A stretch of DNA of 64,000 bases from a phage: assembly GCA_019897865.1 (NCBI GenBank), contig GCA_019897865.1_4532.1; one strand, 5' to 3'. This document shows positions 1 to 27,528 of this stretch, piece after piece. A program made the translations under genes and the position numbers. The notes under the pieces are model-generated. The model was not told the origin of the DNA. It was given only the letters and a program-made list of their open reading frames with translations, and ran no database searches. Every line of letters starts with the position of its first letter. The first letter of the stretch is position 1.

Positions 1-296
1 AAAAAAACTTTAAATACTGTGGGCGCGCAAAATTTTTAAAATTTTCCTTGATTTTTGAGTTTTGTTTTGTATCTAACATTTTAAGATAATTTTCCTAAAC
101 TTTAAATTTTGGTTTTCAACTTTCACTTTTGTAAATTCTTAAAAAGTTTAAATAATTTGAGGGATTTTTGAGATAATGGATAGTGGGAATTTGATATAAC
201 CTTTAATCTTATTAGTAGACCTTCAGGAACCCACCTAGATCGAATCCTAGGGATGCAAACTGAAAAAGACAAGGGTTTGTATAGGACAAAATAATA

Positions 297-328
297 GGCT
301 CTCTACGGTGCTGTAGGAGCCTTATTTC
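297..328. terminator. Intrinsic terminator-like hairpin downstream of the leftward NADAR gene, T/A-rich on both sides
   Basis: ggctctctac/gtaggagcc stem with one bulge, followed by ttatttctg on + and tattatttt on the minus strand. Confidence 0.5.
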
Positions 329-377: not shown

Positions 378-920
378 TCACAAATATCGTCTTTGCGGTA
401 TTTTGTCTGGGAAAAGTATTTCGATCAGTTTATTATGATATTTTCCTAAAAGATTCTGCCCTTTCCAGGTAGCAGGGTTTAGCACCCCTGGTTCATACAT
501 TCCCATTCCAATACCGTAAACCTTATCGTAAGGACTTGCTTCAACAAACGTTTTGTATTGGTAAAGGTGTAAGTCTGCATACAAATCTGGATTCTGTACA
601 TATTTCAAGCATAAGCCTCGCATAACAATACGCTCACGGTTCTCTTCCCACATATCATTATTAAAACCAGATACCGCTCGACCCATACGTTTGTAGTATG
701 CTTGTTTCCTCTCGTTGTCACGTATAGTTGAGTGATCAAGGATAGCTGCTGCAATCGCATGATCCTTGAACAGCAAAGCCTTACGCCACATCATATATTG
801 CTCAACACAACAGAAAGTCTCATTGTAACCTGGTTCAGTTTCTGTAAAGGGTGCAATATACCAATTACTAAACACATCTTTATGTGAAAAGAAGAATACA
901 TATTCATCAGTTATTCTCAT
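378..920 (-). CDS. NADAR-domain protein (YbiA-like ADP-ribose processing enzyme)
   Basis: 180 aa; FSNW, CVEQYMMWRKALLF, MGR and GIG..N.LG motifs resemble E. coli YbiA/NADAR. Confidence 0.7.
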   Translation of the reverse strand: MRITDEYVFFFSHKDVFSNWYIAPFTETEPGYNETFCCVEQYMMWRKALLFKDHAIAAAILDHSTIRDNERKQAYYKRMGRAVSGFNNDMWEENRERIVMRGLCLKYVQNPDLYADLHLYQYKTFVEASPYDKVYGIGMGMYEPGVLNPATWKGQNLLGKYHNKLIEILFPDKIPQRRYL

Positions 921-1096
921 TTTTTCATGCCTTCTAAAACTTTAGCTTGCCCGTCTTGAAAAGCTTTCATCAGAACTATCTTAAGATTGACTTCCAAACG
1001 TTCTTCATCCTCTCTATAACAATCCAACACTGCTTTAAGTTCATCATAGTGGTTCAGAATAGGTTTAAAGATTTCATGATCTGCTAAACGTGCCAT
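917..1096 (-). CDS. hypothetical small protein
   Basis: ORF in track (917..1132); second ATG at 1096 is preceded by AAGGAGA, first ATG has no RBS. Confidence 0.45.
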   Translation of the reverse strand: MARLADHEIFKPILNHYDELKAVLDCYREDEERLEVNLKIVLMKAFQDGQAKVLEGMKK

Positions 1097-1109
1097 AGTT
1101 TCTCCTTTG

Positions 1110-1475
1110 TTAGTCCATCCACCAGTAGCCATAAACTGCGTCTGCGTCGATGAGTTTGTGTTTGTTGTTCCGCATGTAGTCTAAGATAAGTAGACGTTTA
1201 TTGTATCTGGAGAGATTATGACCCTCTTTTCCGCCATAGTCAAAATATTTTGCAAGATCTTTACACTCAAACAAAATCAGTTCGGGAGTTTCTTCACACT
1301 GGTCTGTCTGGTACACTTGACGAATGATCATGTATACATCGTCGTCTTCCGCTAAATGCTCTACTGGTCCACATCCAGCAGGAACAAATTCATAGTCCCA
1401 TCTGATCAGATGTTTCTCTACTGCTTCAAAGAAGTCCATTCTTTCGTTGCGCATAATTTGAACGTCAACTAACAT
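1110..1475 (-). CDS. hypothetical protein
   Basis: 121-aa ORF, GGAGG-containing RBS upstream (rc of ctcctctctc at 1481-1490). Confidence 0.5.
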   Translation of the reverse strand: MLVDVQIMRNERMDFFEAVEKHLIRWDYEFVPAGCGPVEHLAEDDDVYMIIRQVYQTDQCEETPELILFECKDLAKYFDYGGKEGHNLSRYNKRLLILDYMRNNKHKLIDADAVYGYWWMD

Positions 1476-3017: not shown

Positions 3018-4157
3018 TTAGAACACGCTACCAAGTGTAGTGGAACGTTGTGTTACAGGCTCCAGCACCACTCGCAAAGTGTTTCCTGGTGTAGTGCTCA
3101 TAACCAGAATCTTACCACCTTCAATCAGATCACAAGTTAGACCATCAGCCGTTGCACATAGATCAATATGTGGATCACCATCTTCATCCAGGATAACATA
3201 ACTGTTGGTTTCCATTGCTTCCACTTCATCATCTTTCAAACTTTGTAGATAGATGTTCAGGGAACAAGCACCCGACAAAAACTTAGTAGGGGTGAAGTCG
3301 TGCCAGTTATTGATCCAATTCACCTTCAAGGTTTTGCCATTAGCTACGATAGAAGCCACATTCCATTTAGCATCGTTCCCTAAAGAAATACCCATCATTT
3401 CAAGACATTCTTTAAAAGTCATTTTTGGATAGAAATTCAATTCTTCTACAATGCCTTGAATAACATCGAAAGACAACTCTGTGCTAACATCCCATAAACG
3501 TTGGAAGTTATCTACGTGCTTTTTATTTACCAAGTTCTTATCCAAGTAATCTAACATAGTTTCACTAGACAGTTTATCGTAATTGAAACTGTAGTAGATA
3601 CGACTAGGACGGTTTACAAAATATTCCGAGATATAACCACTATTTTTAGTGAGGATGTAAAGTTTATTCCCACTTCCTGTTCCATCCAACAAGGTCAACA
3701 GTGCTTCCTGATCTTCTTTCTTAGCGTACACTTTATCAAATTCGTCAAATAAAACAACAGCACGATCTGTAATTTTACTCATAAATTCTAAGAAGCCAGC
3801 ATCTGTGTAAGGCTGTGTAACCAAAATGGTTGGAATACCTAAACCTTCTGTGGACATTAGAGACATGCTAATTAGTTTAGCTAACATCGTCTTACCACTG
3901 CCTTTTGTCCCTGTCAGTAACACCCCAGTATTTTTACCTTCTTTACTACGACGAGCAAATGTTTTAATAACATGTGCGGCGCGATCTTTAGTTTCCCCAT
4001 AAAGAGTGTTCGGAAGAGAGAAACTTTCACCACGCACTAAAGAGTAGTTACCGTGCGGATCGCAGTTGACAACCCAAACTCCAGCAGGAAGTTTATTAGC
4101 TTCAACGCCATATTCCTTATTTACAACAGCTACATCTCCAAAAATAGTGTATTTCAT
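3018..4157 (-). CDS. AAA-type ATPase
   Basis: 379 aa; Walker A GTKGSGKT and Walker B VVLFDEFDK. Confidence 0.65.
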   Translation of the reverse strand: MKYTIFGDVAVVNKEYGVEANKLPAGVWVVNCDPHGNYSLVRGESFSLPNTLYGETKDRAAHVIKTFARRSKEGKNTGVLLTGTKGSGKTMLAKLISMSLMSTEGLGIPTILVTQPYTDAGFLEFMSKITDRAVVLFDEFDKVYAKKEDQEALLTLLDGTGSGNKLYILTKNSGYISEYFVNRPSRIYYSFNYDKLSSETMLDYLDKNLVNKKHVDNFQRLWDVSTELSFDVIQGIVEELNFYPKMTFKECLEMMGISLGNDAKWNVASIVANGKTLKVNWINNWHDFTPTKFLSGACSLNIYLQSLKDDEVEAMETNSYVILDEDGDPHIDLCATADGLTCDLIEGGKILVMSTTPGNTLRVVLEPVTQRSTTLGSVF

Positions 4158-4524: not shown

Positions 4525-4689
4525 CTATTCCCACAACATACAAATCGCAGCGACAAACATATTAGCAATAGCCGCACCAAGAACTATAAACATCGCCAGT
4601 TCAGAACAATATTCACCAACCAAAGGGGATACTATTGCACAGAGTAACCCCAATGTCAAACACAAGTTGATGATGAAGTTTAAAATCAT
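4525..4689 (-). CDS. small hydrophobic membrane protein (54 aa), not in ORF track
   Basis: Hand-translated MILNFIINLCLTLGLLCAIVSPLVGEYCSELAMFIVLGAAIANMFVAAICMLWE; AAGGAGAG RBS upstream; fills an otherwise empty gap. Confidence 0.45.
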   Translation of the reverse strand: MILNFIINLCLTLGLLCAIVSPLVGEYCSELAMFIVLGAAIANMFVAAICMLWE

Positions 4690-4698
4690 ATTCTCTCC

Positions 4699-4890
4699 TT
4701 ACAACCAACCTTTTGCCTGATAGCCTTTAGAAAATCCATCTTCCCATTCTTCGAATTCCTTTTTGTGTGTCATTGGACAATATGGATTTACTTTATTAAA
4801 CATACCAAACTTGAACCCTGCGGTATACCCCTTCTTAAAAGCTATTGATTCTAAAGAGATCATATTCTTTCTCCTCTTAGAACTCGACAA
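4699..4890 (-). CDS. hypothetical small protein
   Basis: 63-aa ORF tiled in leftward operon. Confidence 0.4.
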   Translation of the reverse strand: MSSSKRRKNMISLESIAFKKGYTAGFKFGMFNKVNPYCPMTHKKEFEEWEDGFSKGYQAKGWL

Positions 4891-5128
4891 TGATTTTGTC
4901 TAAGTGTTCTGCTTCAACTTGGGATAATGTTAACACCTGCACCAAACCTCTGTCAATACCAATTTTAATGACTTGCAAATAATCACCAAAAAGATCTGAT
5001 AAAGAAATAGCATGTTCCGTAACTACAATAACTTCATTACCTTTAGTGTATTCTTTCCACACCCGACCACATTTATAAATGTAATCTTTTTGATCTTCAG
5101 TAATCATTTTAGGTTTGATACTTAACAT
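4877..5128 (-). CDS. hypothetical protein
   Basis: 83-aa ORF tiled in leftward operon. Confidence 0.45.
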   Translation of the reverse strand: MLSIKPKMITEDQKDYIYKCGRVWKEYTKGNEVIVVTEHAISLSDLFGDYLQVIKIGIDRGLVQVLTLSQVEAEHLDKIIVEF

Positions 5129-5493
5129 TACATACTCCCGTATTCTGGTTCAATATTATGTTTACGACAAATGGTATCCCAACGTTCATTACCAAAACTT
5201 CTTCCATGTAGAGCGTTAAATGCGAAATGCTCTGCCAACCACAATACTACATCATCAGGATCTGTGTCAAGAGGAATTCTAAACTCTCGATCATAACGCA
5301 TACGCAGAATAAAATCCTTATCATCTTCAAGGAGATACATGTGACTTTTAGCCCGTGATGCCAAATCAAAGAAAGGAGGCTCATCTTTCCAAACGTGACG
5401 CTCAACTTCAACACCATGATCTACTACCAGAGTAGCGATCACCTCTCTCATTTCTTTACTAAACATATTACCTCCATTAACCAATGAGTTCAA
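5128..5493 (-). CDS. hypothetical protein
   Basis: 121-aa ORF, abuts neighbours. Confidence 0.5.
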   Translation of the reverse strand: MNSLVNGGNMFSKEMREVIATLVVDHGVEVERHVWKDEPPFFDLASRAKSHMYLLEDDKDFILRMRYDREFRIPLDTDPDDVVLWLAEHFAFNALHGRSFGNERWDTICRKHNIEPEYGSM

Positions 5494-5665
5494 CTGCTTT
5501 GCAGATGTAGATCCAAACCGGAGTGAGCATAAGAGCTATACCGAATGCACAATTCCACTTAATTCCCATTTCCTCTATTAGAGACATGATTAAGCCAACA
5601 GCACTAATAATCAGATAGATCCCTAAGAAAGCCATTGTGAAGAATTCAGACATATTTAGCTCCAA
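5477..5665 (-). CDS. small membrane protein
   Basis: 62 aa with two hydrophobic helices. Confidence 0.4.
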   Translation of the reverse strand: MELNMSEFFTMAFLGIYLIISAVGLIMSLIEEMGIKWNCAFGIALMLTPVWIYICKAVELIG

Positions 5666-6012
5666 AGATTATCAAAATAACTAGCGAATAAAAGACGGCC
5701 CTCTAACCGTGCCTTCCTTTGATCTTCAGCATACACGATTTCTGGATTACCACTATCAATAAAAGCATTCTCCATCTTTTCTAAAATATTTAACCACTCT
5801 CTTCTACCTGTCTCCTCTTCTTCATCTGTATACGGCGCACTTCTATTTGGATACAAAACACGCATCAGTTTAGTGGGGATCATGACAAACGTGCTATTGT
5901 TTGCCTTCTCGCGGAAGGCTTTAATTCCTGCATAGATTACCTTCCCCAAAGCTGCATCCAAATCCATCAGGTCACTTTCTTCTATTTGAATTTCATCGTG
6001 TACAATTTTCAT
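5656..6012 (-). CDS. hypothetical protein
   Basis: 118-aa ORF. Confidence 0.5.
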   Translation of the reverse strand: MKIVHDEIQIEESDLMDLDAALGKVIYAGIKAFREKANNSTFVMIPTKLMRVLYPNRSAPYTDEEEETGRREWLNILEKMENAFIDSGNPEIVYAEDQRKARLEGRLLFASYFDNLWS

Positions 6013-6296
6013 CGTGCCTTCTCCCGATCTGCGTCCAATTTCAACAAGAAGGTTGCATACTCTTCTGAGCCTTGATGCAAGAACATACGATAAGAACTTA
6101 CCAGTTTCTTGGTCGTTGTATAACGTTCCATTTCCCCAACAACACCTCCACCCAGGGTGTAGAGCACAACACCCTCAAACCCAACATGAGTTACTACTTC
6201 AACCAAGTCTGTGTTATCCCAATGGTAGTTAGGTGACACAATAAGATCGCCAACTGCCAGTTTAATGTTTGCTACTTCATTTTGTGAATAATACAT
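6009..6296 (-). CDS. hypothetical protein
   Basis: 95-aa ORF overlapping neighbour by 4 nt. Confidence 0.5.
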   Translation of the reverse strand: MYYSQNEVANIKLAVGDLIVSPNYHWDNTDLVEVVTHVGFEGVVLYTLGGGVVGEMERYTTTKKLVSSYRMFLHQGSEEYATFLLKLDADREKAR

Positions 6297-6308
6297 TTGG
6301 TTCTCCTC

Positions 6309-6602
6309 TCACATTAAGACACGTTTTGTATCGATGGGTGCATTATCAAACATGTTAAGAACATTGTCAAGCAGTTTTACTAATTCATTTGTAATTTGTT
6401 CTTTTGAACGGGAGGAAGTGAGCACTTTGCTTTCACCAACGATATGCATAACTTTTATAGGAGCATCTAAAATAATGTTGTGCTGACGATCCTCTTCAAA
6501 AGAAGCCAACCATTTCTCGTTGTTACCGTGTAAGGCTACAATGACACCAAAACCGTTAATTGTCTCAGAAATATTCTTAGTTGCTAAAGTAATGTTCATC
6601 AT
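6309..6602 (-). CDS. hypothetical protein (first gene of leftward operon)
   Basis: 97-aa ORF; tandem ATG ATG preceded by GAGGT. Confidence 0.5.
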   Translation of the reverse strand: MMNITLATKNISETINGFGVIVALHGNNEKWLASFEEDRQHNIILDAPIKVMHIVGESKVLTSSRSKEQITNELVKLLDNVLNMFDNAPIDTKRVLM

Positions 6603-6627
6603 CTACCTCTCTTGTTAATGTTCATAT

Positions 6628-6686: not shown

Positions 6687-6716
6687 CAACTCATACAAAA
6701 CAAGAGGAGAAAACAA

Positions 6717-13400: not shown

Positions 13401-13652
13401 ATGGCGGGGTATCACATAACAGACATTAAGAAACAACCTTATGGCAGCATAGAAAAGATTAAAGAGGAAGTAGAAGAACTTTTTGATGCTGTTGAACAGG
13501 ATTGCAAAATAATGCAACTTGTTGAATTATCAGATATTATAGGTGCTGTGGAGGGAGTTTTAGAACAACAGTTTCCAGATATGACTTTACAAGATTTAAT
13601 CATTATGTCCAGCATTACTAAACGCGCTTTCCGCACAGGAGGAAGATCATGA
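13401..13652 (+). CDS. small helical protein, possibly MazG-like
   Basis: 83 aa; EEVEELFDAVE and ELSDIIGAVE acidic helix motifs. Confidence 0.3.
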   Translation: MAGYHITDIKKQPYGSIEKIKEEVEELFDAVEQDCKIMQLVELSDIIGAVEGVLEQQFPDMTLQDLIIMSSITKRAFRTGGRS

Positions 13653-14203
13653 ACGTAGCTGTTATTGCTCAAGCTATTGATTACTACGGGCGATTTGCGG
13701 AGATGTTGGAAGTCCCTTATCTTGTAGATGCGGATATCCTTGCATATACATTACCAGAAGGTAAAGAGGATCGCCCCTTGGGGCATCCTAATGGTAAGTT
13801 CTACGTAGCCAGTGCAGAGCAGTCTTTCCTCCAGATGGAGAAAGACGGGTTTGAATTTTCAACAGATCATCCTTATATGGCTCTAACACCTTGCTACCGA
13901 ACAGAAGAAGAGTTAGATGATGTTCATTTTAACATTTTCTTGAAGTTGGAAATTATTGAGTTTTATCCAGGAGCATCCATCAAAGAATATGCCGAAACTA
14001 TGCGCTATTTCTTTTGGACGTATTACAAAGTTCAAACTCAAATCATAGAGACAGATATTGGTCTTGACGTGGAAGATATGTATGGGTTAGAATTAGGTTC
14101 GTTTGGGATGAGAACTTCTCCACAAGGTCATCCGTATTTATACGCCACTGGTATCGCAGAGCCTAGGGCATCTATTGCAATAAAACGAGGAGGGTTATTA
14201 TGA
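13649..14203 (+). CDS. hypothetical protein
   Basis: 184-aa ORF overlapping neighbours. Confidence 0.5.
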   Translation: MNVAVIAQAIDYYGRFAEMLEVPYLVDADILAYTLPEGKEDRPLGHPNGKFYVASAEQSFLQMEKDGFEFSTDHPYMALTPCYRTEEELDDVHFNIFLKLEIIEFYPGASIKEYAETMRYFFWTYYKVQTQIIETDIGLDVEDMYGLELGSFGMRTSPQGHPYLYATGIAEPRASIAIKRGGLL

Positions 14204-15549
14204 ATGTATATACACATAAGCAAGATTTGGTAACAGCGGCAAACAATCGGGGCTTGTTCGATAGGCTTTGCAAAGCTATTGAAATTGCATATGGTTGGAC
14301 TAAAGAGACAGATCCTAAACTTACAGGACAATATGCTCTTTTACACGGTTGCACAAATTTTCCATACGTCTGTCACACAGTCGGGACCAATGAATTTTCT
14401 GGAGAGCCGACAGTAGGAGATAATGAGCTACGTTTTACAGGAGATGCAATGCTAGATTTAATTCTTAAGAAAACTAAAATGTTAAAAATTGAAGATGTTT
14501 ACACAGACACTAGTAACCTTTCTGAAGAAGAAATTGGAGAAATGATTACTACTTTCAATAATACAACAGGGAAGAGTTTTTGGACTAAAAGCGATGCTTC
14601 CCGTCTTAAACGAGTAGACCCTGCTATTCCAGAAGACGGTAAGAAGTATCGAAAAGTTATCTTTTACGATAAAATGGCAGGTCTGGATGCGCTGCATCTT
14701 GAGTGTGGAAGCCTTGTGCCTCCGGCTGTCAGAGAACATGAATTTGCAGTTGAGGTTGAAGCACAGGAGTTTAAAGATATGTTTTATACTAAGCATGTAA
14801 GGAAAGTGGAAGATATGGAACAACAAAAAGAGACTTTTGAACCAGAAGACACAGAGCCTACCTATATTCCTAATACAGGTATTCAACCTTGTGAAGACTT
14901 TGTTCAAGTCCGTTACAAAAATGGTGTTTTAGAAGTATGCAAAGCCAACCACTTTGAATGGGAGAAATACGATAGTGAATGGCAGATTGAAGAATATTTT
15001 GTTCTCCCAAGAACAGCAAAATACCAAGCCCACATTGGAGGTAAACGCCCTTGTGATGGTCCTGTTGATGTTCTTTTTCGAAATGGGGACCAAGGAAAAG
15101 GTTTGTCGGCAGAGACGCTTTATTGGAGCCACTCTGGAGATGGATCAGACATTGTAGGTTATATTAAACTTAACCCGTCTCCACGTTACCGCAAGCGTCG
15201 TCAGAAGCCGCCAGTAGGTAAGAAGAGTGTCGTTCGTGTCCTCTACACTACACAACAGACCTACACATTTAAAAATGTGGTAGACGTGCAAGTGACTGAG
15301 GAGCGAGTTTATATCCAATATGATCGTGAAGTTACAGAGGGTATCAAAGAATCGGTTACTACCGAAATTGAAAATAAGCTTGTTATGGCGATCATTGTGG
15401 AAGAAAGTAAAGTAGAGAACGGTAAAGCCTACACTGTTCGTGATAGCTTCTTGCGTAATATCGATGGAACTTGGGATTATAATGGACATGATGGGACCGC
15501 TGTAAAGAACGGTAAGATTATGGGAAGACAATTCCTCTCCAAACAATAA
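14200..15549 (+). CDS. hypothetical protein
   Basis: 449-aa ORF, followed by terminator. Confidence 0.55.
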   Translation: MNVYTHKQDLVTAANNRGLFDRLCKAIEIAYGWTKETDPKLTGQYALLHGCTNFPYVCHTVGTNEFSGEPTVGDNELRFTGDAMLDLILKKTKMLKIEDVYTDTSNLSEEEIGEMITTFNNTTGKSFWTKSDASRLKRVDPAIPEDGKKYRKVIFYDKMAGLDALHLECGSLVPPAVREHEFAVEVEAQEFKDMFYTKHVRKVEDMEQQKETFEPEDTEPTYIPNTGIQPCEDFVQVRYKNGVLEVCKANHFEWEKYDSEWQIEEYFVLPRTAKYQAHIGGKRPCDGPVDVLFRNGDQGKGLSAETLYWSHSGDGSDIVGYIKLNPSPRYRKRRQKPPVGKKSVVRVLYTTQQTYTFKNVVDVQVTEERVYIQYDREVTEGIKESVTTEIENKLVMAIIVEESKVENGKAYTVRDSFLRNIDGTWDYNGHDGTAVKNGKIMGRQFLSKQ

Positions 15550-18151: not shown

Positions 18152-18757
18152 ATGCAACATAGTGTAGTAGTCAACATGCCGAACAGCGGAGATAAATCTT
18201 TTGGTGTCCCTGCTAAAAAAGTGTGGAAAGCCCATTTTCATCTTACTTTATCTAACGTTAGTTCTGAAGAGTTGATGAAAGCAGCTAAGATTATTGGTGC
18301 CAAATGCACAACAATTGATTTACATCGGGATACAAAGTCTCAACGTGATCGTATGTTAACAAAGTATCAAAGCGATCTCGACACTACTTTAATGTTGCAA
18401 TGTGTAGAAAAACTTGAGAATGCAGGTTTCAATGTTGTTCGTTACAAACTGGAACGAATGTTTAAACATGTTGCCTGTGTTCTTTTCATGGATCTAAGTA
18501 AAGAAAATTATGGAGAAGTTCACATTAAGACTTCAGCAAGTGATCCCGAAGTAGAAACAAACTTCTTCCGTATTTCTTCTAATGCTGAAGAAATTGATTA
18601 CCGATTTTATAATGCTCGCTTATATTCCGCAGAAGATAAGTTGCGTTTCAATGAAGCGTATGATATGCTCTTGAACAGTGGGATACAGATAAAAGGCTAC
18701 CACATAGAACAAGTTGTGGTAGACAGTAACTTAAATCTTGATGCGTGGTGGGCCTAA
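18152..18757 (+). CDS. hypothetical protein (first gene of Ter-like cluster)
   Basis: 201-aa ORF, GAGGAG RBS. Confidence 0.5.
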   Translation: MQHSVVVNMPNSGDKSFGVPAKKVWKAHFHLTLSNVSSEELMKAAKIIGAKCTTIDLHRDTKSQRDRMLTKYQSDLDTTLMLQCVEKLENAGFNVVRYKLERMFKHVACVLFMDLSKENYGEVHIKTSASDPEVETNFFRISSNAEEIDYRFYNARLYSAEDKLRFNEAYDMLLNSGIQIKGYHIEQVVVDSNLNLDAWWA

Positions 18758-18758
18758 T

Positions 18759-19415
18759 ATGACAATAAAACATATCTCTTTTGATGTATGGAACACTCTT
18801 ATTTCTGCCAATCAAAACTATGCAGATGCACGTACGCACACTATTGCGACATATGGTAGAATGTCTGAACGTGCCGCAAAAGAAGCATATAAAGATGCCA
18901 AAGAAATTATGGATAATGCTGCACTAAATGGGTGTGCAGAAGGTGTAGCATATGCATGGAATATGTTGGGAAGAAAAATAGGTTTAACCCCTGTAGAATC
19001 TGCACAAATGCGTTTTGAGTGTGAACAATGGTTTCTTAAATTTCCTCCACATATTGCTTTAGATTTGCCAGTTTGTTTGCTATACTTGTCTGGTAAATAT
19101 GATCTTAGTATTAAAAGCAATACTAATTTTATATCTGGGGATATTTTGCGTCGTGCTTGTATGTTCGATAGTTGGAATTGTTTTGAATTTATGCATTTTT
19201 CAGACGAACATCTGTTGTGTAAACCAGATCCTAGATTCTTTGTTAGGACCGCCACATATTCAAGCATTCCTTTGAAGGCTGAAGAGATTTTACATGTTGG
19301 GGACAGCGAAGAATTTGATGGTAAATGTGTTGACATAGGGATTAACTTCTGTCATATTAAGAACCCTAACGACTTACTAGAGAAACTTAAAAGAGGAGAA
19401 ATTGTAAATGCGTAA
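18759..19415 (+). CDS. HAD-superfamily hydrolase
   Basis: Motif I ISFDVWNTL, motif III CKPDPRFF, motif IV HVGDSEEFD. Confidence 0.6.
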   Translation: MTIKHISFDVWNTLISANQNYADARTHTIATYGRMSERAAKEAYKDAKEIMDNAALNGCAEGVAYAWNMLGRKIGLTPVESAQMRFECEQWFLKFPPHIALDLPVCLLYLSGKYDLSIKSNTNFISGDILRRACMFDSWNCFEFMHFSDEHLLCKPDPRFFVRTATYSSIPLKAEEILHVGDSEEFDGKCVDIGINFCHIKNPNDLLEKLKRGEIVNA

Positions 19416-20235
19416 TCAAATTCAAATTTTTGCAAATAAATTTGATGACCTGGAAACTGCTACTTTTGATATTAAAGATTATTCAAAATTGAAATTTGGT
19501 AGTAACCAGGCTGCGCGTCGTATGGGTAAAGAATTGGCACTTCAGTTTTTTGCTCAAGTGGCAATGAAACATATTGGGGAACAATTTGTTATCATCCCTT
19601 CTCCTTATAACCATGTGCATAATGCTGCAACAATGATGACAGATCATTTTATTAATTACTTTAATATGTTGCAAGCACAATATGATCAAGGTCGTTCAGC
19701 AGAACTGGATATTATTCATCGTAAAGTTAGCTATATCAACGATTATGGTTTCTTGGATAAAGCTAGTCGTAAGAAACTTATTGATGGGGATACATTCTAC
19801 TGCAACAAAGAATTCTGGGGTGATAAGAAGCTTGTGTTCATTGATGATGTAAATATCACCGGAACTCATGAAGACAAACTGATTGAGATCCTTGATGAAA
19901 ATCAAGTTAAAAATGATGTTTACTTCTTGTATTTTGCAAAATATGAAGGTAATCAAGCAGATACCGAAGCTAAACTGAATTTTAATTATATTAATACACC
20001 AGAAGCGTTTGTTAAAATGATTAATGAAGAACGTGATGCACAGTGCCTTGTTCGTCCTATTAAGTATCTTATGGGCCAAAATCACGAAGACTTCAAAATC
20101 ATTCTTAGCCAATTGCCACACTACTATGTAGAGCAACTTTTCTTTGGATGTTTGGGAGAAGGTTACAACCGAATTTCAAAGTATGCTGAAAACTTTGAAT
20201 TCTTGGATCGTTACACAAAACAACATGTTCTGTAA
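19408..20235 (+). CDS. type I phosphoribosyltransferase (PRTase)-like protein
   Basis: 275 aa; PRPP-binding-like motif KLVFIDDVNITGTH. Confidence 0.6.
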   Translation: MRNQIQIFANKFDDLETATFDIKDYSKLKFGSNQAARRMGKELALQFFAQVAMKHIGEQFVIIPSPYNHVHNAATMMTDHFINYFNMLQAQYDQGRSAELDIIHRKVSYINDYGFLDKASRKKLIDGDTFYCNKEFWGDKKLVFIDDVNITGTHEDKLIEILDENQVKNDVYFLYFAKYEGNQADTEAKLNFNYINTPEAFVKMINEERDAQCLVRPIKYLMGQNHEDFKIILSQLPHYYVEQLFFGCLGEGYNRISKYAENFEFLDRYTKQHVL

Positions 20236-20248
20236 TAAGGAGCTAAAA

Positions 20249-20722
20249 ATGCTTAAAATGAAAACAGGTAATCTTATTGATGCCGCTAAAGCAGGCGAAG
20301 TAACTGTTATTGCTCATTGTTGCAATTGTATGTGTAATATGGGAGCAGGAATTGCTCCGCAAATTAAACGAGCATTCCCTTATGCATATGCGGCAGATTT
20401 AGACACAATGGCTGGTGATCAAAGTAAGTTAGGTTCTTTTAGTTTAGGGGTGCCAGACGAACAATCGGACCCTTTGGTATATAATCTATACGGACAATAC
20501 CGTTACGGATACAATGCTAAAGGTCGTCAGTTGGACTATGATGCACTTTACGATGCACTAATAGCTATGGCTAATGATTTGCTTCTCCGTGACCAAAAAT
20601 GTAAGATCGGCTTACCTATGATTGGCGCTGGATATGCTGGAGGTAATTGGGCTATCATCCAAGTGATGATTGAAGAAACTTTAGTAAAAACAGGTCACGA
20701 TGTGACTATTTATAAACTTTAA
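20249..20722 (+). CDS. macro-domain protein (ADP-ribose binding/hydrolysing)
   Basis: Track ORF 20144..20722; ATG at 20249 preceded by AAGGAG; VTVIAHCCNCMCNMGAGIAPQI macro signature. Confidence 0.6.
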   Translation: MLKMKTGNLIDAAKAGEVTVIAHCCNCMCNMGAGIAPQIKRAFPYAYAADLDTMAGDQSKLGSFSLGVPDEQSDPLVYNLYGQYRYGYNAKGRQLDYDALYDALIAMANDLLLRDQKCKIGLPMIGAGYAGGNWAIIQVMIEETLVKTGHDVTIYKL

Positions 20723-20734
20723 GAGGAGATTAGT

Positions 20735-20956
20735 ATGGGTGTTTTTGCAGGTATTGTTGCAGTGGTAAGCTTTTTTGTTATTGCTTTTATGCTTAGTTTG
20801 ATTCCAGCTTGGTTACTGTTGCTGGCTTACAACTATGTTGCTGAAGTTATGGGTCATGCAGATATCACTGTCCCAGTAACCTTCTGGACCGTGGTTTGTG
20901 TTTCGTTTATTCTGGCGGTATTACGAGGAATCTTTTCCTCTCATTCAACAAAATAA
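20735..20956 (+). CDS. small integral membrane protein
   Basis: 73 aa, two hydrophobic helices, AGAGGAG RBS. Confidence 0.5.
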   Translation: MGVFAGIVAVVSFFVIAFMLSLIPAWLLLLAYNYVAEVMGHADITVPVTFWTVVCVSFILAVLRGIFSSHSTK

Positions 20957-20959
20957 GTG

Positions 20960-20987
20960 TTGACATAGTTCTTAAAAAGAGTAAGAT
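20960..20987 (+). promoter_or_regulatory. sigma70-like promoter TTGACA-N16-TAAGAT upstream of TerC
   Basis: -35 at 20960-20965, -10 at 20982-20987; followed by 8-bp stem-loop gcggggaa/ttccccgc at 21000-21018 in the 5' UTR. Confidence 0.5.
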
Positions 20988-21035
20988 ATATCACATGAAG
21001 CGGGGAATAGTTCCCCGCAAAGAGAGGAGAAAAGA

Positions 21036-22010
21036 ATGCAACTCGGTTTCCCAATTATTGATGTAGTTGTTTTAGTTGGTATTTTGGCATTGTCTATTGG
21101 TATCGATTTCTTTGGTCATAAAGAGAATAAAGAAATTGGAATTAAATCTGCTTTGCTTTGGTCTGTTTTTTGGATTGCTTTAGCTTTAGGATATTACGCA
21201 TTCATTTGGGTAGAGCATGGTAAAGAGTTTGCCGCACTTTTCCTAAGTGGATATGTGTTGGAAAAGAGTCTTTCTGTTGATAACCTAATGGTGTTCATGG
21301 CAATTTTTGCAAGCTTTGGAATTAAGAGCACACATCTCCAACATAAGATTTTACTTTGGGGGATTGCAGGAGCCATTGTCTTCCGAGGTATTTTTGTTGC
21401 AGCAGGGACCGCTTTGTTTAACCTTCATTGGTCGGTCCAAGTGTTGTTCGGTTTGATTGTAGCTTGGTCTGCCGTGGCTATCATCAAAGGTGGTGACGAA
21501 GAAGAGGATATTGATTACTCTAAGCATTGGGCTGTTCGTTTAGTAGGTAAAGTTCTGCCTGTGCACAATGCACTGGATGGTGAAAAGTTCATCACCATTA
21601 AGAATGGTATTAAATATGCAACTCCTGCTCTTCTTTGTGTGTTTGTTATTGAGCTTACAGATATTGTCTTCTCTTTTGATTCAGTTCCGGCTGTGATCGG
21701 TGTGACACAAGAACCTCTGCTAGTTTATTCTGCAATGCTGATGGCTGTTCTTGGTTTACGTGCACTTTTCTTTGTGTTAAGTGTAGCTGTGAAATATCTG
21801 GTTCACTTAGAGAAAGCTGTTGCTGTGGTTCTGGTGTTTGTTGGTGCTAAACTTATGTATCACCCGTTCGGTGAAACACTTCATGCCAAGTGGTCATTCC
21901 TCCCGCATGATATTTCCCCTAACGTAAGTCTGATGATTGTTCTAGGCACATTAGCTCTTGGTGTTATTGCAAGCTTTATCTTCCCTGAAAAAGAAGAAGC
22001 TGCTGTTTAA
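21036..22010 (+). CDS. TerC-family integral membrane protein
   Basis: 324 aa, multi-pass hydrophobic; TerC-type motifs including LEKSLSVDNL. Confidence 0.7.
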   Translation: MQLGFPIIDVVVLVGILALSIGIDFFGHKENKEIGIKSALLWSVFWIALALGYYAFIWVEHGKEFAALFLSGYVLEKSLSVDNLMVFMAIFASFGIKSTHLQHKILLWGIAGAIVFRGIFVAAGTALFNLHWSVQVLFGLIVAWSAVAIIKGGDEEEDIDYSKHWAVRLVGKVLPVHNALDGEKFITIKNGIKYATPALLCVFVIELTDIVFSFDSVPAVIGVTQEPLLVYSAMLMAVLGLRALFFVLSVAVKYLVHLEKAVAVVLVFVGAKLMYHPFGETLHAKWSFLPHDISPNVSLMIVLGTLALGVIASFIFPEKEEAAV

Positions 22011-22016
22011 TAGATG

Positions 22017-22041
22017 AGCCTCCTTCGGGAGGCTATTTTAT
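22017..22041 (+). terminator. Rho-independent terminator
   Basis: agcctcc ttcg ggaggct hairpin (UUCG tetraloop) followed by ATTTTAT. Confidence 0.7.
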
Positions 22042-22052
22042 AGGAGAGACTT

Positions 22053-22403
22053 ATGAATAATTTTGATGAAATTCAAGAACTTGTTTGGGATTTATCTGGT
22101 GATGTGGATTACGTTTTAGATTATCTTTCAAAAGTTTACCCTGGGGTAAGCGTTATGATCGTGACCAAAGATCCAATTAATTTGCCTCCTAATGTGGTAG
22201 CTTGTTGTGGGAGTGGTTCAGGGGCAGTGGAGCCTGTATCCCGTTGGGAATTAACTAAAGCTGTTTCAAAACGAAACGGTGAAGTTTTGAATATTGATAT
22301 CGAGCAAATATGGACTTCTCCAGCAGCTAAATGGAATGATCCGAATGGTTGGGACTTGTTCTTCTGGGATAATGAAACTGATGATGAGGTATTTTTAAAA
22401 TGA
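22053..22403 (+). CDS. hypothetical protein
   Basis: 116-aa ORF with AGGAGAG RBS. Confidence 0.5.
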   Translation: MNNFDEIQELVWDLSGDVDYVLDYLSKVYPGVSVMIVTKDPINLPPNVVACCGSGSGAVEPVSRWELTKAVSKRNGEVLNIDIEQIWTSPAAKWNDPNGWDLFFWDNETDDEVFLK

Positions 22404-22645
22404 AATACTTGTTGGTTGTGTTTGAAAATATTTGTTTTGCAATAGGGTTGTTTGTTGTAATTTTTGTATTGACAAGCGTAATCAACGGCAGTAAAGTGAG
22501 TTTATACCGAGATGGAGAGCAACTTTATTGCTTCTCTGGAGATTTCAAACACAGATGTATTAATAGCCAAAACGAGGAAAGCAAATATGAAAAAACTAGC
22601 CCTGATTTTAATTGGTTGTATCTTTTTAACAGCTTGCGAGGATGA
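22400..22645 (+). CDS. putative small membrane protein (overlaps lipoprotein gene; extent uncertain)
   Basis: 81-aa ORF with hydrophobic N-terminus; 3' end overlaps 22587..23024 by 59 nt. Confidence 0.3.
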   Translation: MKYLLVVFENICFAIGLFVVIFVLTSVINGSKVSLYRDGEQLYCFSGDFKHRCINSQNEESKYEKTSPDFNWLYLFNSLRG

Positions 22646-23024
22646 AACAAATCCTGCACAATACCAACAACCTCCTCAACAATACGCTCAACAAGGATCT
22701 GAAGGAGATACAACTATTATCAACAATGGTGGCGGTTCTAGTAGTAGCGGTGTTGGTGAGTTTGCTACAGGTATGTTGTTAGGGCATATGATGAGTGGCG
22801 GTAGTAATCGTAGCAGTGGGGATTATAACGATAACAGAACGATTATTAATAAGCATTATAATACACCTAAACCGAAAACTAATTTTTATGGTAAGCCTAA
22901 ACAAGAGATAAAAACTTATGAAAAGCCGAGACAAACTTTTAAAACAAATAGTAGCTATACAACTCGTAAATCTTACAATAGCCCTTTAAGTAAAAAGAGT
23001 TCATCTCGTAGCAAGCGACGTTAA
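22587..23024 (+). CDS. lipoprotein (signal peptidase II lipobox), Gly/Ser/Asn-rich
   Basis: MKKLALILIGCIFLTAC with L-T-A-C lipobox; track ORF 22512..23024 has internal ATG at 22587. Confidence 0.6.
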   Translation: MKKLALILIGCIFLTACEDETNPAQYQQPPQQYAQQGSEGDTTIINNGGGSSSSGVGEFATGMLLGHMMSGGSNRSSGDYNDNRTIINKHYNTPKPKTNFYGKPKQEIKTYEKPRQTFKTNSSYTTRKSYNSPLSKKSSSRSKRR

Positions 23025-23038
23025 TAAGGAGAAAAACA

Positions 23039-23632
23039 ATGACAATTTCTATTCGTACTTCCATTGTAGGTGTTAAAAGGTTGCCTAATGCTTTGCAAAT
23101 CACACGCGCTTTGAGGGATACATTCTCTGCTGTGGACGAGCATAAGATGCTTGATAATCTTTCAAATTGGCCCTATTTCCATTATTTTAAAAATGAAGAT
23201 GACGAGTTTATAGACGCTGTTTCTTATGGTTATGATTTCGGTAAGGAGGTTTCTGCTGAAGAATTTGTAGCTATGGTGTTCCCAAACGGTTTGCCTACTC
23301 GCAGTAAACGTAAAAAAGGACCAAAAAACAAGAAACGTGCTACTAATAAAGCTACCATTTTCTTTACTGATGGCACACAATATACGATTAAAGATTTTGA
23401 AGAGGTATCTTATACAGCAGGTGGGAATCTTTCTTTCTACACCATCAAAAAACAAAACTCTACGTTCAGCCATGTTTCTAACATGATTGAAATGTTAGTA
23501 GAAGATATTGAAAGCGTAGCTGTGTTAGGTATGCATAAAAGCTTTTTAATTACAAATATTTCAGATTTCAGTGCACGTTTATCTGGCCCTGATTTTGAAG
23601 CCACGACCACGCATTTCACTTTTAAGGTGTAA
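23039..23632 (+). CDS. hypothetical protein
   Basis: 197-aa ORF. Confidence 0.5.
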   Translation: MTISIRTSIVGVKRLPNALQITRALRDTFSAVDEHKMLDNLSNWPYFHYFKNEDDEFIDAVSYGYDFGKEVSAEEFVAMVFPNGLPTRSKRKKGPKNKKRATNKATIFFTDGTQYTIKDFEEVSYTAGGNLSFYTIKKQNSTFSHVSNMIEMLVEDIESVAVLGMHKSFLITNISDFSARLSGPDFEATTTHFTFKV

Positions 23633-23635
23633 GTT

Positions 23636-24226
23636 ATGTATACCGAGAGAGACTTGCAACTCTTGTGGTGGGAAGTGATGCAGGAAATAAAAGAAGATTT
23701 TCCTGTTTACTACAACATGTTACGTGAAGCAGGATATAAAGCTTGCGTTAGAAACAAAGTGAATAACTCTTTCGGTTGGTGCAACTACCGAGATAAAATT
23801 GTTGTTGTAAATTGGCACTTGCATAAGAACTCTACAAGAGATATGATCGTGGATACAATGAAGCACGAAATTGCTCATGCTATTGATGGTTGTATGGGTA
23901 AGTTTAGTCGGCACGGTGCTCATTGGCAAAAACTGGCAGCAGAATTAGGGGCAAACCCTAAAGCTACTTCCAAAGAGCCGTTGAACCATGAATATAAATA
24001 TGTTCTTGTTTTGGTGGATAGGTTTGCGACAAGATGTGTTAGAGGGTATAATCGTAAACCTAATCGCATGTATCCAGGTAAGCAACCTAATATGTGGTTA
24101 AAATCAGATAAAGAAGGAACAGAAGGAAAATTATGGTTGTATAAATGGGACGATTGGGTTAAAGTAGCTAAAGAATACGGTGTTTCACCATATATAAGAG
24201 ATGCAGAAGAGGAGAATGAAGAATGA
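23636..24226 (+). CDS. SprT-like zinc metalloprotease-domain protein
   Basis: 196 aa; HExxH motif in MKHEIAHAIDG. Confidence 0.45.
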   Translation: MYTERDLQLLWWEVMQEIKEDFPVYYNMLREAGYKACVRNKVNNSFGWCNYRDKIVVVNWHLHKNSTRDMIVDTMKHEIAHAIDGCMGKFSRHGAHWQKLAAELGANPKATSKEPLNHEYKYVLVLVDRFATRCVRGYNRKPNRMYPGKQPNMWLKSDKEGTEGKLWLYKWDDWVKVAKEYGVSPYIRDAEEENEE

Positions 24227-25335
24227 CAAGTCCGTTTTTAAAAGCAGCTACTGGTGGTCAGAAGAAGTCTGAAATGAGTGTATTCACTGCAACAACAGAT
24301 GCAAGTAAATCTGTATTTGCTCCAACCGTGTTAGATGCCAGTCCTGTTTATGCACCAGCCGCACCGCAAGAAGTCCCAGTTTTGCCTTCTATGACACGAC
24401 AAGAGATCGAAGAGATCGGGGCAGAGGCAGGAACAACCTTGCGTTCCTTGAATGCCGAGGTATTAAAACATCAACGTAGTAATCAAGGCGATCAGATGAG
24501 TGAACGACTCACAGCTTTGATTAAACAGGCAAAACAACTTGATCCAAACTCTATTAAACAAAGCAAAGGTATTACTAAACTCATTAAAAAAGTTATGGGT
24601 ATGAAAGAAGACCTGTTTGGGGAGTTTGATAATGTTAATAACCGTATTGAAGAGTTGGTAAAGAACCTTCAAATGGATATTCGCAAAGAAGAAGATTCCT
24701 TGGTATATCTTGAAAAGCTACATCAAGCTATTGGACAATATGCTGCAAGTTTGAACCGAGATATGCAGCTTCTAACAGCAACCTATGAAAAAGAAGAACA
24801 AGCTTTGGCTGCTCTTCCAAAAGATGCGGTAGAACAGCGACAAGCGATCCGAGATACCTTGGATCTTCTGGAGATTCGTATTGCGGATTTAAAAGCATTG
24901 CGCCTACTGTGTGTCCAAATGGGACCACGTGTGCAAGGTATGCAAAAAGTTTCTGCAAGCTTAATGCGATCTGCGCGTAACATAGTAAATAATGTTATTC
25001 CTGCTTACTCTGCTAACTTCTCAATGTATATTGAGAGCTTACGTCAAATGAAAGCCGCAGAGACACAGAATAACGTTCTTGATGAATTTAACCTGGCAAT
25101 TAAACTGGGTAGCGATCTTGCCACACAGAATCAGATCGAAGCAGCAGCACTGGCTAACCGTCAAGTGTTGGATATTGAAACTCTGCGTCACGATCAGGAA
25201 AACTTGGTCAAAATGTTGGAAGAAACTAACCGCATCAATACGGAAGCCCGTGCTGCCCGTGTTGATTACATCAATGAAGTTCAATCTCTCGAAGATGGGA
25301 TGGTTGACGCTGTTAAGAAGGGGTTGGGTAAATGA
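24223..25335 (+). CDS. TelA-like (toxic anion resistance) helical protein
   Basis: 370 aa, Ala/Pro-rich N-terminus then long helical region; size and context fit TelA/KlaA family. Confidence 0.4.
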   Translation: MTSPFLKAATGGQKKSEMSVFTATTDASKSVFAPTVLDASPVYAPAAPQEVPVLPSMTRQEIEEIGAEAGTTLRSLNAEVLKHQRSNQGDQMSERLTALIKQAKQLDPNSIKQSKGITKLIKKVMGMKEDLFGEFDNVNNRIEELVKNLQMDIRKEEDSLVYLEKLHQAIGQYAASLNRDMQLLTATYEKEEQALAALPKDAVEQRQAIRDTLDLLEIRIADLKALRLLCVQMGPRVQGMQKVSASLMRSARNIVNNVIPAYSANFSMYIESLRQMKAAETQNNVLDEFNLAIKLGSDLATQNQIEAAALANRQVLDIETLRHDQENLVKMLEETNRINTEARAARVDYINEVQSLEDGMVDAVKKGLGK

Positions 25336-25538
25336 GAATCCGTGTATACATGCTTGACGAACAAGCTGGAGAAATAGGTGTTCGTTATGACGAAGAGAAA
25401 CGCTTTGCCCCAATGACCCAGCTACAAACTCCAGATATTTTTGCAGCTTGTCGTGATGGATATATCTATGAAGGTTGTCGTAACTTTGGTAGATTTAAAG
25501 TTATTTCTGATGTGGACTTTAATGAGGAAGAAGAATGA
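25332..25538 (+). CDS. hypothetical small protein
   Basis: 68-aa ORF. Confidence 0.45.
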   Translation: MRIRVYMLDEQAGEIGVRYDEEKRFAPMTQLQTPDIFAACRDGYIYEGCRNFGRFKVISDVDFNEEEE

Positions 25539-25708
25539 AAACTTTACGAGTGAATATTGAAACTGCTTGGTGTGGATGCAATGAGGTTGTGGATATCGAA
25601 ATTGAAGATGATATGTCTCAAGAGGATATAGAAGATCTTGCACACGAAACCTTTCAGGACTATTGTAGCTATGGGTTTCATATTTTAGAGGAGAAAGAAG
25701 ATGCATAA
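25535..25708 (+). CDS. hypothetical small acidic protein (57 aa), not in ORF track
   Basis: ATG at 25535 after GAGGAAG; MKTLRVNIETAWCGCNEVVDIEIEDD... Confidence 0.4.
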   Translation: MKTLRVNIETAWCGCNEVVDIEIEDDMSQEDIEDLAHETFQDYCSYGFHILEEKEDA

Positions 25709-25898
25709 TCCAAAACCTGATACCATTACGTTGACTCGACAGGAACTGATCACAATCATTGAAGATGCTTTTATTGATGGTTGGAATACACAAGATAATG
25801 ATTGGGGTGGACCTGAAGCTTTTCTAGAACATCATAAAGCGTATGGAGAATTTTGTGAAACCACTGTAGCTCTTGATAATCTGAAGGAGGGTTTGTAA
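25701..25898 (+). CDS. hypothetical small protein
   Basis: 65-aa ORF. Confidence 0.45.
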   Translation: MHNPKPDTITLTRQELITIIEDAFIDGWNTQDNDWGGPEAFLEHHKAYGEFCETTVALDNLKEGL

Positions 25899-26461
25899 TG
25901 GGTTGTTTTAGCTTTTTGTGTAAGGAATCGGGCAAAGCTGCCCTTTCTACTTCTTTCGACGGATCACCTTGCTATCTCTTTCTTTTGAAGGATGGTGTTG
26001 TTATTGAAGAGATGTATGGCAACTATGATAGTTATGGTTGTGTTTTCTCTGGAAAGGAGGATGAAAATGGCGTTCGTGAACGGTTCGAATGGGCTATGGA
26101 TTGGGGTAAGGTTTGTGATTTAATGCATTCCTCGAATCCAAGGGACGGTATCGCTATGGTGCTGGAAGAGTATTTTACAGGTGAAATCCCTACAGAACAA
26201 TCTGACGGAGATCCTAACCAAGGTTGGGGTGATGGCGAAGAAGATCCAGATTGTTTTTTCAGCACAGAAAAGAATAAGTTTAAACGTGTTGACAACCCTT
26301 ATCACAAAGTGCATAATACTCTCATTGAAACAGAAGATGACAAGATGGAAATTGAAGAAGATGATCCTCTTGTAACACTTCCTATAAGTGAGTTACAAAA
26401 GATCACTAAGGAAGCTTACGATTTGGGCTTCAAAATTGGTAGAGGAGGTATGCGTGTTTAG
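25898..26461 (+). CDS. hypothetical acidic protein
   Basis: 187-aa ORF. Confidence 0.5.
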   Translation: MGCFSFLCKESGKAALSTSFDGSPCYLFLLKDGVVIEEMYGNYDSYGCVFSGKEDENGVRERFEWAMDWGKVCDLMHSSNPRDGIAMVLEEYFTGEIPTEQSDGDPNQGWGDGEEDPDCFFSTEKNKFKRVDNPYHKVHNTLIETEDDKMEIEEDDPLVTLPISELQKITKEAYDLGFKIGRGGMRV

Positions 26462-26732
26462 ATTCAATATTCAAGAAGAAAAGTGTCAGGATTTACCTAT
26501 TGCTTTCGAAGATCTTGGCATAGGGGACACATTCATGTATTATGATGCCTATGAAGACGCAGGGTTGGATACCTACCGTAACTTGGTGTTCATTAAAAAT
26601 TCCACAAACAGTGCGATCTGTATTAATGGATCACTAGCACAACGAGGCTATACTCATTGCATCCCACCAGATACAAATATGGTGGAAGTAGATTTAGAAG
26701 TTACCAATATTACACTTAAGAAGGAGAAATAA
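26454..26732 (+). CDS. small protein, paralog A of duplicated module
   Basis: GTG start 6 nt after AGGAGG; about 40 percent identical to 27754..28023 product (shared DLxxGDTFxY..A.E..GLD and EV.L.VT.ITLK). Confidence 0.5.
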   Translation: MFRFNIQEEKCQDLPIAFEDLGIGDTFMYYDAYEDAGLDTYRNLVFIKNSTNSAICINGSLAQRGYTHCIPPDTNMVEVDLEVTNITLKKEK

Positions 26733-26733
26733 T

Positions 26734-27528
26734 ATGTCCGAGAAAATCAGCCTGAAAAAACGTCAAGAAAACCTTGCTTTCTCTCTGAAAAAGAATAAGA
26801 ACCTGAACGAAGGTAAGATTGTTCTTCGTGTAGCATGTGCTCTAGATATTTCTGGTAGTATGCATGGTCTATATACTCGTGGGGTAGTGAGTGATTTTGT
26901 AGGTAAACTGCTTCCTTTTGGTATGCTGTTCGACGATAATGAACAAATTGACATGTGGGCCTTCAATACGAGTTCTCAAGAGCTTACTCCAGCAACAGCA
27001 GACGTTTACGATGACTACGTTGGTAAATGTATGCGTAATGTTCGTATCGGAGGTGGAACAAATTACGCCCCTGTAATGGCAGATATCTACGATGAGTATT
27101 TTGGCACTGTTACCAAATATGTTACCACTAAACAAGTGGTACAAGAGGAGGCTCCAAAGAAAGGCTTCTTTAATCGTCTGCTTGGTAAAACTGAAACAGT
27201 GTCTGTAGAGCGTGAAAAAGTTGTAGCTGTATCTGAACCAGGTGCTGACGTTACCCCTGGTGTTGTATTCTTCCAGACGGATGGTGAGAATGGTGATCCT
27301 AGTGCTGTTCGTCGTCTTATTGAAGAGAATAAGAATAAACCTATTTATTGGTTCATGGTTGGCGTTGGTAATGAGAAGTTTGGCTTCCTGAAAGAACTGG
27401 CAAATGCTTATGATAATGTTGGTTTTATTGGCATTAAAGATTTAGACTTGACAGATTCAGAGCTTTATGACAAACTCTTATCTGAAGAGTTCGGAGAGTG
27501 GGTTGTTAAAGTAGGTGCTAAAAAATGA
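26734..27528 (+). CDS. vWA-domain protein (TerF/TerY-like) with TerD-like N-terminal KISLKK motif
   Basis: 264 aa; MIDAS-like DISGSM; N-terminus MSEKISLKK mirrors TerD N-terminus. Confidence 0.55.
   Translation: MSEKISLKKRQENLAFSLKKNKNLNEGKIVLRVACALDISGSMHGLYTRGVVSDFVGKLLPFGMLFDDNEQIDMWAFNTSSQELTPATADVYDDYVGKCMRNVRIGGGTNYAPVMADIYDEYFGTVTKYVTTKQVVQEEAPKKGFFNRLLGKTETVSVEREKVVAVSEPGADVTPGVVFFQTDGENGDPSAVRRLIEENKNKPIYWFMVGVGNEKFGFLKELANAYDNVGFIGIKDLDLTDSELYDKLLSEEFGEWVVKVGAKK

Follow-up and report, generated by a model that had tools for sequence, protein, structure and literature searches.

What a lytic phage gains from a NADAR-domain enzyme, and on which ADP-ribose-derived substrate that enzyme would act, is the question raised by the gene that closes a leftward block near one end of the phage DNA analyzed here (a single stretch of 64,000 nucleotides, referred to as the window). 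A sequence-only reading of the window had called the NADAR domain and offered three roles for the protein, namely counter-defence against ADP-ribosylating host immunity, counter-defence against NAD-based immunity, and nucleotide salvage. The features on which our evaluation of these roles draws are collected in Table 1.

The gene is one unbroken ORF with its ATG at 920-918 and its TGA at 380-378, and the ORF together with the profile matches described below bears out the coordinates, strand and domain call that it had been given. A Shine-Dalgarno-like motif lies 9 nt 5′ of the ATG, and at the matching place the record of Escherichia phage ESCO13 carries an annotated ribosome-binding site (locus 6930-6936). 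The first 4.2 kb of the window are 99.7% identical to the Escherichia phages ESCO25, ESCO37, REC, Ro121lw and ESCO13. The source of the window is a Phapecoctavirus of the subfamily Stephanstirmvirinae, a phAPEC8-like E. coli phage belonging to lytic myoviruses of ~150 kb, so that the earlier description as a lytic phage was right.

Table 1 Features of the window discussed in the text, listed from the NADAR gene and its signals outward.
Feature	Coordinates	Strand	Basis or remark
NADAR-domain protein, 180 aa, proposed AdfN-type ADP-ribosylglycohydrolase	378..920	minus	ORF, profiles, model, orthology
Shine-Dalgarno-like AGAAGG, 9 nt 5′ of the NADAR ATG	930..935	minus	sequence reading
ATGA start/stop overlap of the NADAR ORF and the upstream small ORF (917..1096/1132)	917..920	minus	ORF coordinates, sequence
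Candidate intrinsic terminator closing the leftward operon	286..322	minus	RNA fold
Small ORF between endonuclease and NADAR	917..1132	minus	PHROG 22330
Small ORF between endonuclease and NADAR	1110..1475	minus	PHROG 24465
'Endonuclease', 486 aa	1469..2929	minus	PHROG 681; CapR homology domain
AAA ATPase	3018..4157	minus	PHROG 2376; precedes endonuclease
'Hydrolase'	18738..19415	plus	Ter-type cluster
ComF-like PRTase	19408..20235	plus	PF15610 at 144 bits
Macrodomain protein	~20249..20722 (ORF as listed 20144..20722)	plus	Pfam PF01661 22.7 bits, just above cut-off; PHROG 335 'phosphatase'
TerC-like membrane protein	21036..22010	plus	Ter-type cluster
TelA	24223..25335	plus	Ter-type cluster
vWA-TerF-like protein	26734..27528	plus	Ter-type cluster

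In the ESCO13 annotation, the leftward block begins at a divergent intergenic region (window ~6600-6716), runs from ~6599 to 378 through what are mostly small genes, and has the NADAR gene (gp168) as its final member. The start codon of this gene overlaps the stop of the small ORF upstream in an ATGA, an arrangement also contained in the ESCO13 gene models (gp169/gp168 coordinates), which suggests translational coupling inside the operon. About 55 nt beyond the NADAR stop, the minus strand carries a hairpin (AGGCUCCUAC-AGCACC-GUAGAGAGCCU, 322..296) followed by the U-tract AUUAUUUUG, and the predicted RNA fold of 280-380 on this strand reaches -26.4 kcal/mol (z = -4.3 vs shuffles). This hairpin, which a simple terminator scan did not flag, is plausibly the terminator of the leftward operon and, because its reverse complement likewise precedes a T-rich run, it may act in both directions. 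With the block annotated as ending at the NADAR gene in ESCO13 and the hairpin and U-tract lying beyond it, the placement of the gene at the distal end of the leftward block was correct. The scan for sigma-70 promoters returned 11 sites, a number not above chance (8.8 ± 2.7 in shuffles); on the minus strand, TTGACA-type sites occur several times within 4631-6370. As the promoter total does not exceed the shuffled expectation, early expression of the NADAR operon is an assumption.

Downstream of the NADAR gene lies an unannotated gap of ~800 nt with AT-rich direct repeats of 29-72 nt. The copies inside the window fall at 40-68 and 88-159 of the plus strand, and the repeat stretch (window 40..159) continues to the left of the window (L001 5828..6159). 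Just outside the window, three tandem palindromes TAAATGAGAATGATTATCATTTA occur with a 29-nt spacing; we take these to resemble Fur boxes. A repeat_region is annotated in the equivalent gap of the tuntematon record. A search of positions 1-377 for known non-coding RNAs yielded one chance-level Rfam match (FtrA, 24.6 bits vs 134), and ARAGORN detected no tRNA in the whole window.

That the gene encodes a real and intact NADAR-family protein is clear from profiles, fold and active site alike. The profile search against NADAR (DUF1768), which had been proposed as a check on the domain call, gave a strong match to Pfam PF08719 (E = 3.4e-35; 122.1 bits vs a gathering score of 35.1), and that call stands. 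The match spans residues 11-161, corresponding to profile positions 3-154 of 163 and thus to nearly the whole domain. The protein also matched NCBIfam TIGR02464 (114.9 bits vs a cut-off of 73.7) and PHROG 1017 (E = 3.8e-51), and scored 15.4 bits, vs a threshold of 240, on NF053876, the model of the DS-32 NADAR anti-phage protein. An AlphaFold2 model built with 64 homologues (mean pLDDT 95.2) has the NADAR alpha+beta fold, and a search of the PDB with this model returned two significant matches, both of them NADAR structures, 8BAU (TM 0.79) and 2B3W (TM 0.66), and no others at E<1.

The first of these structures is the NADAR protein of Phytophthora nicotianae (PnNADAR) in complex with ADP-ribose, in which K50, R79, W89, R93, W133 and D130 contact ADP-ribose, while E43 and E125 hold the distal ribose (Schuller et al. 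2023, Mol Cell, PMC11543638). Mapped through HMMER alignments, with the chain numbering equal to the numbering of the paper +2, PnNADAR E43/K50/R79/W89/R93/E125/D130/W133 correspond to E40/K47/R81/W91/R95/E127/D132/Y135 of the phage protein. The conserved catalytic Glu and Lys (PnNADAR E43 and K50) and the ADPr-contact residues are therefore present, with Y135 in place of W133, and E40, K47, W91, E127 and D132 are invariant across the 64 homologues. The NADAR motifs had been called clear from the letters alone, a judgment that both the profile score and the full set of mapped residues support; none of the listed catalytic residues is missing.

We then asked which NADAR of established activity is the closest counterpart. 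This is AdfN^Bas60 (bas60_0111, QXV83846.1) of Escherichia phage PaulScherrer (Bas60), one of the phi92-like BASEL phages Bas60-62, which all carry such a protein and are now classified as Justusliebigvirus, within the same subfamily as the phage of the window. Both proteins are stand-alone NADARs of ~180 aa from lytic Stephanstirmvirinae myoviruses, and they share 57% identity over 172 aa and all of the active-site residues listed above. They differ in genus, at 43% of residues, and by a 7-residue insertion that AdfN^Bas60 has after residue 27 relative to the window protein. Gene order is common to both phages: an AAA ATPase (64% identity), a CapR-domain endonuclease (35% identity), the NADAR gene and the end of the block, with the difference that the window has two extra small ORFs between endonuclease and NADAR, both absent from that position in Bas60. 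In a neighbor-joining tree, the Phapecoctavirus NADARs and the Bas60 group form sister clades with 78.5% bootstrap support (93.5% with one more metagenomic sequence). Bacterial NADARs fall outside, and a long branch of its own leads to E. coli YbiA. From the identity, the gene order, the shared site residues and the sister clades, it follows that the window NADAR is the syntenic orthologue of the tested anti-DarTG1 factor AdfN^Bas60. The gene is an orphan, with no DarT-like toxin gene adjacent to it and the AAA ATPase, the CapR-domain endonuclease and small ORFs as its neighbors.

The experimental record of this counterpart is direct. When produced in uninfected E. coli, AdfN^Bas60 neutralized DarT1 (Johannesman et al., Nat Commun 2025, PMC11825919). 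It also restored plaquing of RB69, T5 and Bas25 on hosts carrying DarTG1, but not on those carrying DarTG2 (PMC11825919). [quoted passage not shown] T4 gp30.3 (AdfN) is likewise a NADAR and frees phage DNA of the ADP-ribose that DarT1 attaches (PMC11825919), and Johannesman et al. inferred that phages acquired NADARs independently several times (PMC11825919). The sufficiency of AdfN^Bas60 was shown by ectopic expression (PMC11825919); we found no deletion in the native phage in the literature.

The pair of AAA ATPase and endonuclease lies upstream of the NADAR gene in Phapecoctavirus and Justusliebigvirus, and is not seen at this place in more distant phages; the endonuclease itself contains five stretches matching the CapR homology domain (repeated Cys-rich units of ~70 aa) and a C-terminal region. 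We considered whether NADAR, ATPase and CapR-domain endonuclease form a conserved functional module, and rejected this notion. As the arrangement is absent in the PVP-SE1-like, Klebsiella and Staphylococcus Kayvirus contexts of more distant homologues, we treat it as inherited synteny and not as an operon-level system. Homologues of 35-45% identity occur in Vequintavirinae (PVP-SE1), Klebsiella myoviruses, Herelleviridae (Staphylococcus Kayvirus, Listeria A511, Enterococcus and Bacillus phages) and jumbo phages. The neighborhoods in the PVP-SE1-like, Klebsiella and Staphylococcus Kayvirus contexts are unrelated to that in the window and, since this holds for homologues beyond the subfamily, the NADAR gene behaves as a stand-alone gene.

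Within its closer relatives, the gene appears to be both widespread and constrained. A tblastn match covers at least 80% of the NADAR query in 711 of 719 matching phage records, which points to full-length copies in essentially all related phage records. Pairwise dN/dS values of 0.04-0.15 among four Phapecoctavirus alleles indicate purifying selection, and the catalytic sites are unchanged among the four. Nearly all differences between these alleles fall in residues 34-90, a pattern that resembles either mosaic recombination or a rapidly evolving loop at the protein surface. Most of them affect a helix and loop (52-72) that also form an insertion compared with PnNADAR, and the C-terminal half hardly varies.

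To place the protein among the known NADAR types, we compared it with representatives of each. Because Glu (E127) occupies the third catalytic position, the protein belongs by sequence to the NADAR-proper and YbiA types, and not to the DarG1 (Asp) or T4 (His) types. PnNADAR (8BAU), a NADAR-proper protein and the best solved-structure match (profile E = 5.9e-35), has the same Glu/Lys/Glu catalytic set and ADPr pocket, but is eukaryotic and 28% identical, with W133 where the phage protein has Y135; the phage protein also has an extra loop at ~62-72, the region in which the Phapecoctavirus alleles vary most. E. coli YbiA (2B3W) has the same fold, also passes TIGR02464 and conserves the Glu at the E127 position, but is 29% identical over 96 aa, has no A-S-P motif following this Glu and lacks the W152 region. 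For DarG1 antitoxins, for example those of E. coli C7 and Geobacter lovleyi, the same chemistry is expected, that is, hydrolysis of guanine-N2-ADP-ribose in DNA. DarG1 proteins, however, are ~230 aa long and N-terminally extended, use Asp (D171) as the third catalytic residue and have darT1 as a neighboring gene (PMC11543638; PMC12945103), whereas the phage protein has 180 aa, a domain that starts from ~residue 5, Glu instead of Asp and no ART next door; we therefore rejected an assignment as a DarG1 antitoxin. AdfN^T4 (gp30.3) shares the superfamily fold and the same proposed role, the reversal of DarT1 guanine ADP-ribosylation; it is reported to be fully active only in the context of a T-even infection. 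A closer relationship to gp30.3 was also rejected: BLASTP gave E = 4.1 with no real alignment, and E127 is present where T4-type NADARs carry His (PMC11543638; PMC12945103).

Together, these comparisons frame the choice between possible functions. We regard it as probable that the protein is a stand-alone NADAR ADP-ribosylglycohydrolase, the Phapecoctavirus orthologue of AdfN^Bas60, which would erase guanine ADP-ribose and so protect the phage against DarTG1. Removal of guanine-ADPr from DNA has been shown for T4 gp30.3 and other NADARs (PMC11125620; PMC11825919), and of the roles offered by the sequence-only reading, counter-defence against ADP-ribosylating immunity is the sole one with direct experimental precedent, through AdfN^Bas60 (PMC11825919). 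Whereas NADARs in general hydrolyze guanine-ADPr in vitro, not all of them protect in vivo: in one study, neither E. coli YbiA nor T4 gp30.3 relieved DarT1 toxicity (PMC11125620). The tested NADARs do not reverse the thymidine modification made by DarT2 (PMC11825919; PMC11125620). Guanine-ADPr removal and DarTG1 counter-defence are the most likely activity and role of the window allele, and we infer that it matches AdfN^Bas60 in both, across a difference at 43% of residues.

The same active site also allows for a wider substrate range. The protein might be a broader de-ADP-ribosylase, acting on guanine and cytosine in DNA and RNA and directed at other or several toxins (pierisin/ScARP-like, YarT-like or undiscovered) and not specifically at DarT1. 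It retains E127, the glutamate characteristic of the NADAR-proper and YbiA families. Members of these families cleaved both C-ADPr and G-ADPr from DNA and RNA, a breadth not shown by the Asp-type DarG1 or the His-type T4 NADAR (PMC12945103). The profile of its own family, moreover, matches the NADAR-proper protein PnNADAR best (E = 5.9e-35 vs 1.8e-16 for YbiA). Against such a role, no cytosine-ADP-ribosylating phage-defence system is reported in the cited literature, and the sole known in vivo phenotype of the orthologue is anti-DarTG1 (PMC11825919). We consider this reading unlikely, and it would in any case extend the anti-DarT1 explanation without replacing it. A metabolic or salvage function, as a YbiA-like housekeeping N-glycosidase that hydrolyzes reactive intermediates of the riboflavin pathway, in damage control or directed overflow, or else a related small-molecule N-riboside, is very improbable. 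It would accord with the score on TIGR02464, a family named for riboflavin biosynthesis intermediates N-glycosidase, and with the labels 'N-glycosidase' or 'GTP cyclohydrolase II' that some records give the gene. Yet the proven AdfN^Bas60 passes TIGR02464 as well (109.4 bits, above 73.7), so that the family name does not discriminate between roles; YbiA aligns at only 29% identity over 96 aa and sits on its long separate branch; and no riboflavin genes are annotated nearby. Pfam found no cyclohydrolase domain in the protein, and we rejected the 'GTP cyclohydrolase II' label, which is a carry-over from RibA-NADAR fusion proteins, just as 'N-glycosidase' stems from family-name transfer.

The distance from housekeeping YbiA also means that nucleotide salvage, one of the roles originally offered, gains no support; the same is true of a role in NAD-based immunity, and for both, NAD-salvage neighbors are lacking and the neighborhood is not conserved outside the subfamily. 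In ~67 kb around the gene, no NAD-salvage genes (NadV/NadM) of the kind found near some phage NADARs are annotated. One form of the NAD-based proposal would have the protein break down soluble immune signals or by-products derived from ADP-ribose (cyclic ADPr isomers of TIR systems, for example, or products of RNA repair) and thereby counter NAD-based signalling immunity. Such a role was suggested from genomic context for the NADAR and Macro domains of phages in general, at a time when no phage NADAR had yet been assayed (Iyer et al. 2022, PMC9503650), but no such NADAR activity appears in the cited literature, in which all tested members act on base-linked ADP-ribose (PMC11125620; PMC11543638; PMC12945103), and neither NAD-salvage nor SLOG/Nudix neighbors were seen at the locus; there is very little chance that it applies here. 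It is still harder to credit that the protein regulates ADP-ribosylation by the phage itself, undoing the marks of a phage-encoded ADP-ribosyltransferase as in the NADAR/Alt-type pairing of T4-like genomes. Iyer et al. (PMC9503650) noted that T4-like phages co-express NADARs with ARTs, and T4 gene 30.3 lies ~3 kb from alt, but no ADP-ribosyltransferase is annotated within ~67 kb around the gene.

Under the preferred explanation, an AdfN-type eraser of guanine ADP-ribose, the NADAR protein would be made from the last cistron of the leftward operon and would bind ADP-ribose on guanine N2 in (single-stranded) phage DNA. The ADP-ribose would sit in a pocket formed by K47, R81, W91, R95, D132 and Y135, where E40 and E127 would hold the distal ribose in place while the N-glycosidic bond is hydrolyzed. 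Replication-blocking marks of the DarT1 type would thereby be erased, and the phage would replicate in DarTG1 hosts. Because it would act on the modification and not on the toxin, the enzyme should work against any guanine-directed DNA ADP-ribosyltransferase.

About 19 kb from the NADAR gene, the window encodes a macrodomain protein that is 37% identical to T4 Tk.4. A 2025 preprint gave Tk.4 the name AdfM and reported that it counters DarTG2 (bioRxiv 10.1101/2025.11.20.689424). The nearest solved relatives of the macrodomain protein are SCO6735 (5E3B), TARG1 and the Thermus DarG macrodomain (5M31), and SCO6735, TARG1 and DarG2 are listed as reversing thymidine ADP-ribosylation by DarT2 (PMC12945103). 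The protein is therefore a candidate for a second counter-defence enzyme, one that may act on thymidine ADP-ribose. A combined scheme can be drawn from these elements, in which a Glu-type NADAR with broad erasing activity (guanine and cytosine, DNA and RNA) and the Tk.4/AdfM-like macrodomain would give Stephanstirmvirinae general immunity to DarTG1, DarTG2 and undescribed systems; we put this forward tentatively, as a doubtful but conceivable extension.

The macrodomain gene lies directly 3′ of the ComF-like PRTase gene and by the TerC, TelA and vWA-TerF-like genes, within a Ter-type cluster at 18152..27528 on the plus strand. This cluster resembles bacterial gene sets for Ter stress response and nucleoside metabolites. 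Elsewhere in the window, two plus-strand ORFs (13649..14203 and 14200..15549) are called 'histidyl tRNA synthetase' in one GenBank record; they have no Pfam match at E<=0.001, and the annotation looks unreliable.

The NADAR gene is a sound and largely expected find, because its counterpart in another phage had already been shown in 2025 to undo DarTG1 DNA damage. With it, the tested clade of Bas60-type AdfN proteins reaches a second genus, and no new question arises. In dozens of Phapecoctavirus genomes, this gene is listed as 'hypothetical protein', 'GTP cyclohydrolase II' or 'N-glycosidase', and the analysis corrects that annotation; many of these phages are candidates for phage therapy of APEC, STEC and ESBL E. 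coli. The resulting prediction is that Phapecoctavirus phages would resist DarTG1 hosts and, by way of the macrodomain gene, possibly DarTG2 hosts too, a prediction that would be useful for matching phages to strains.
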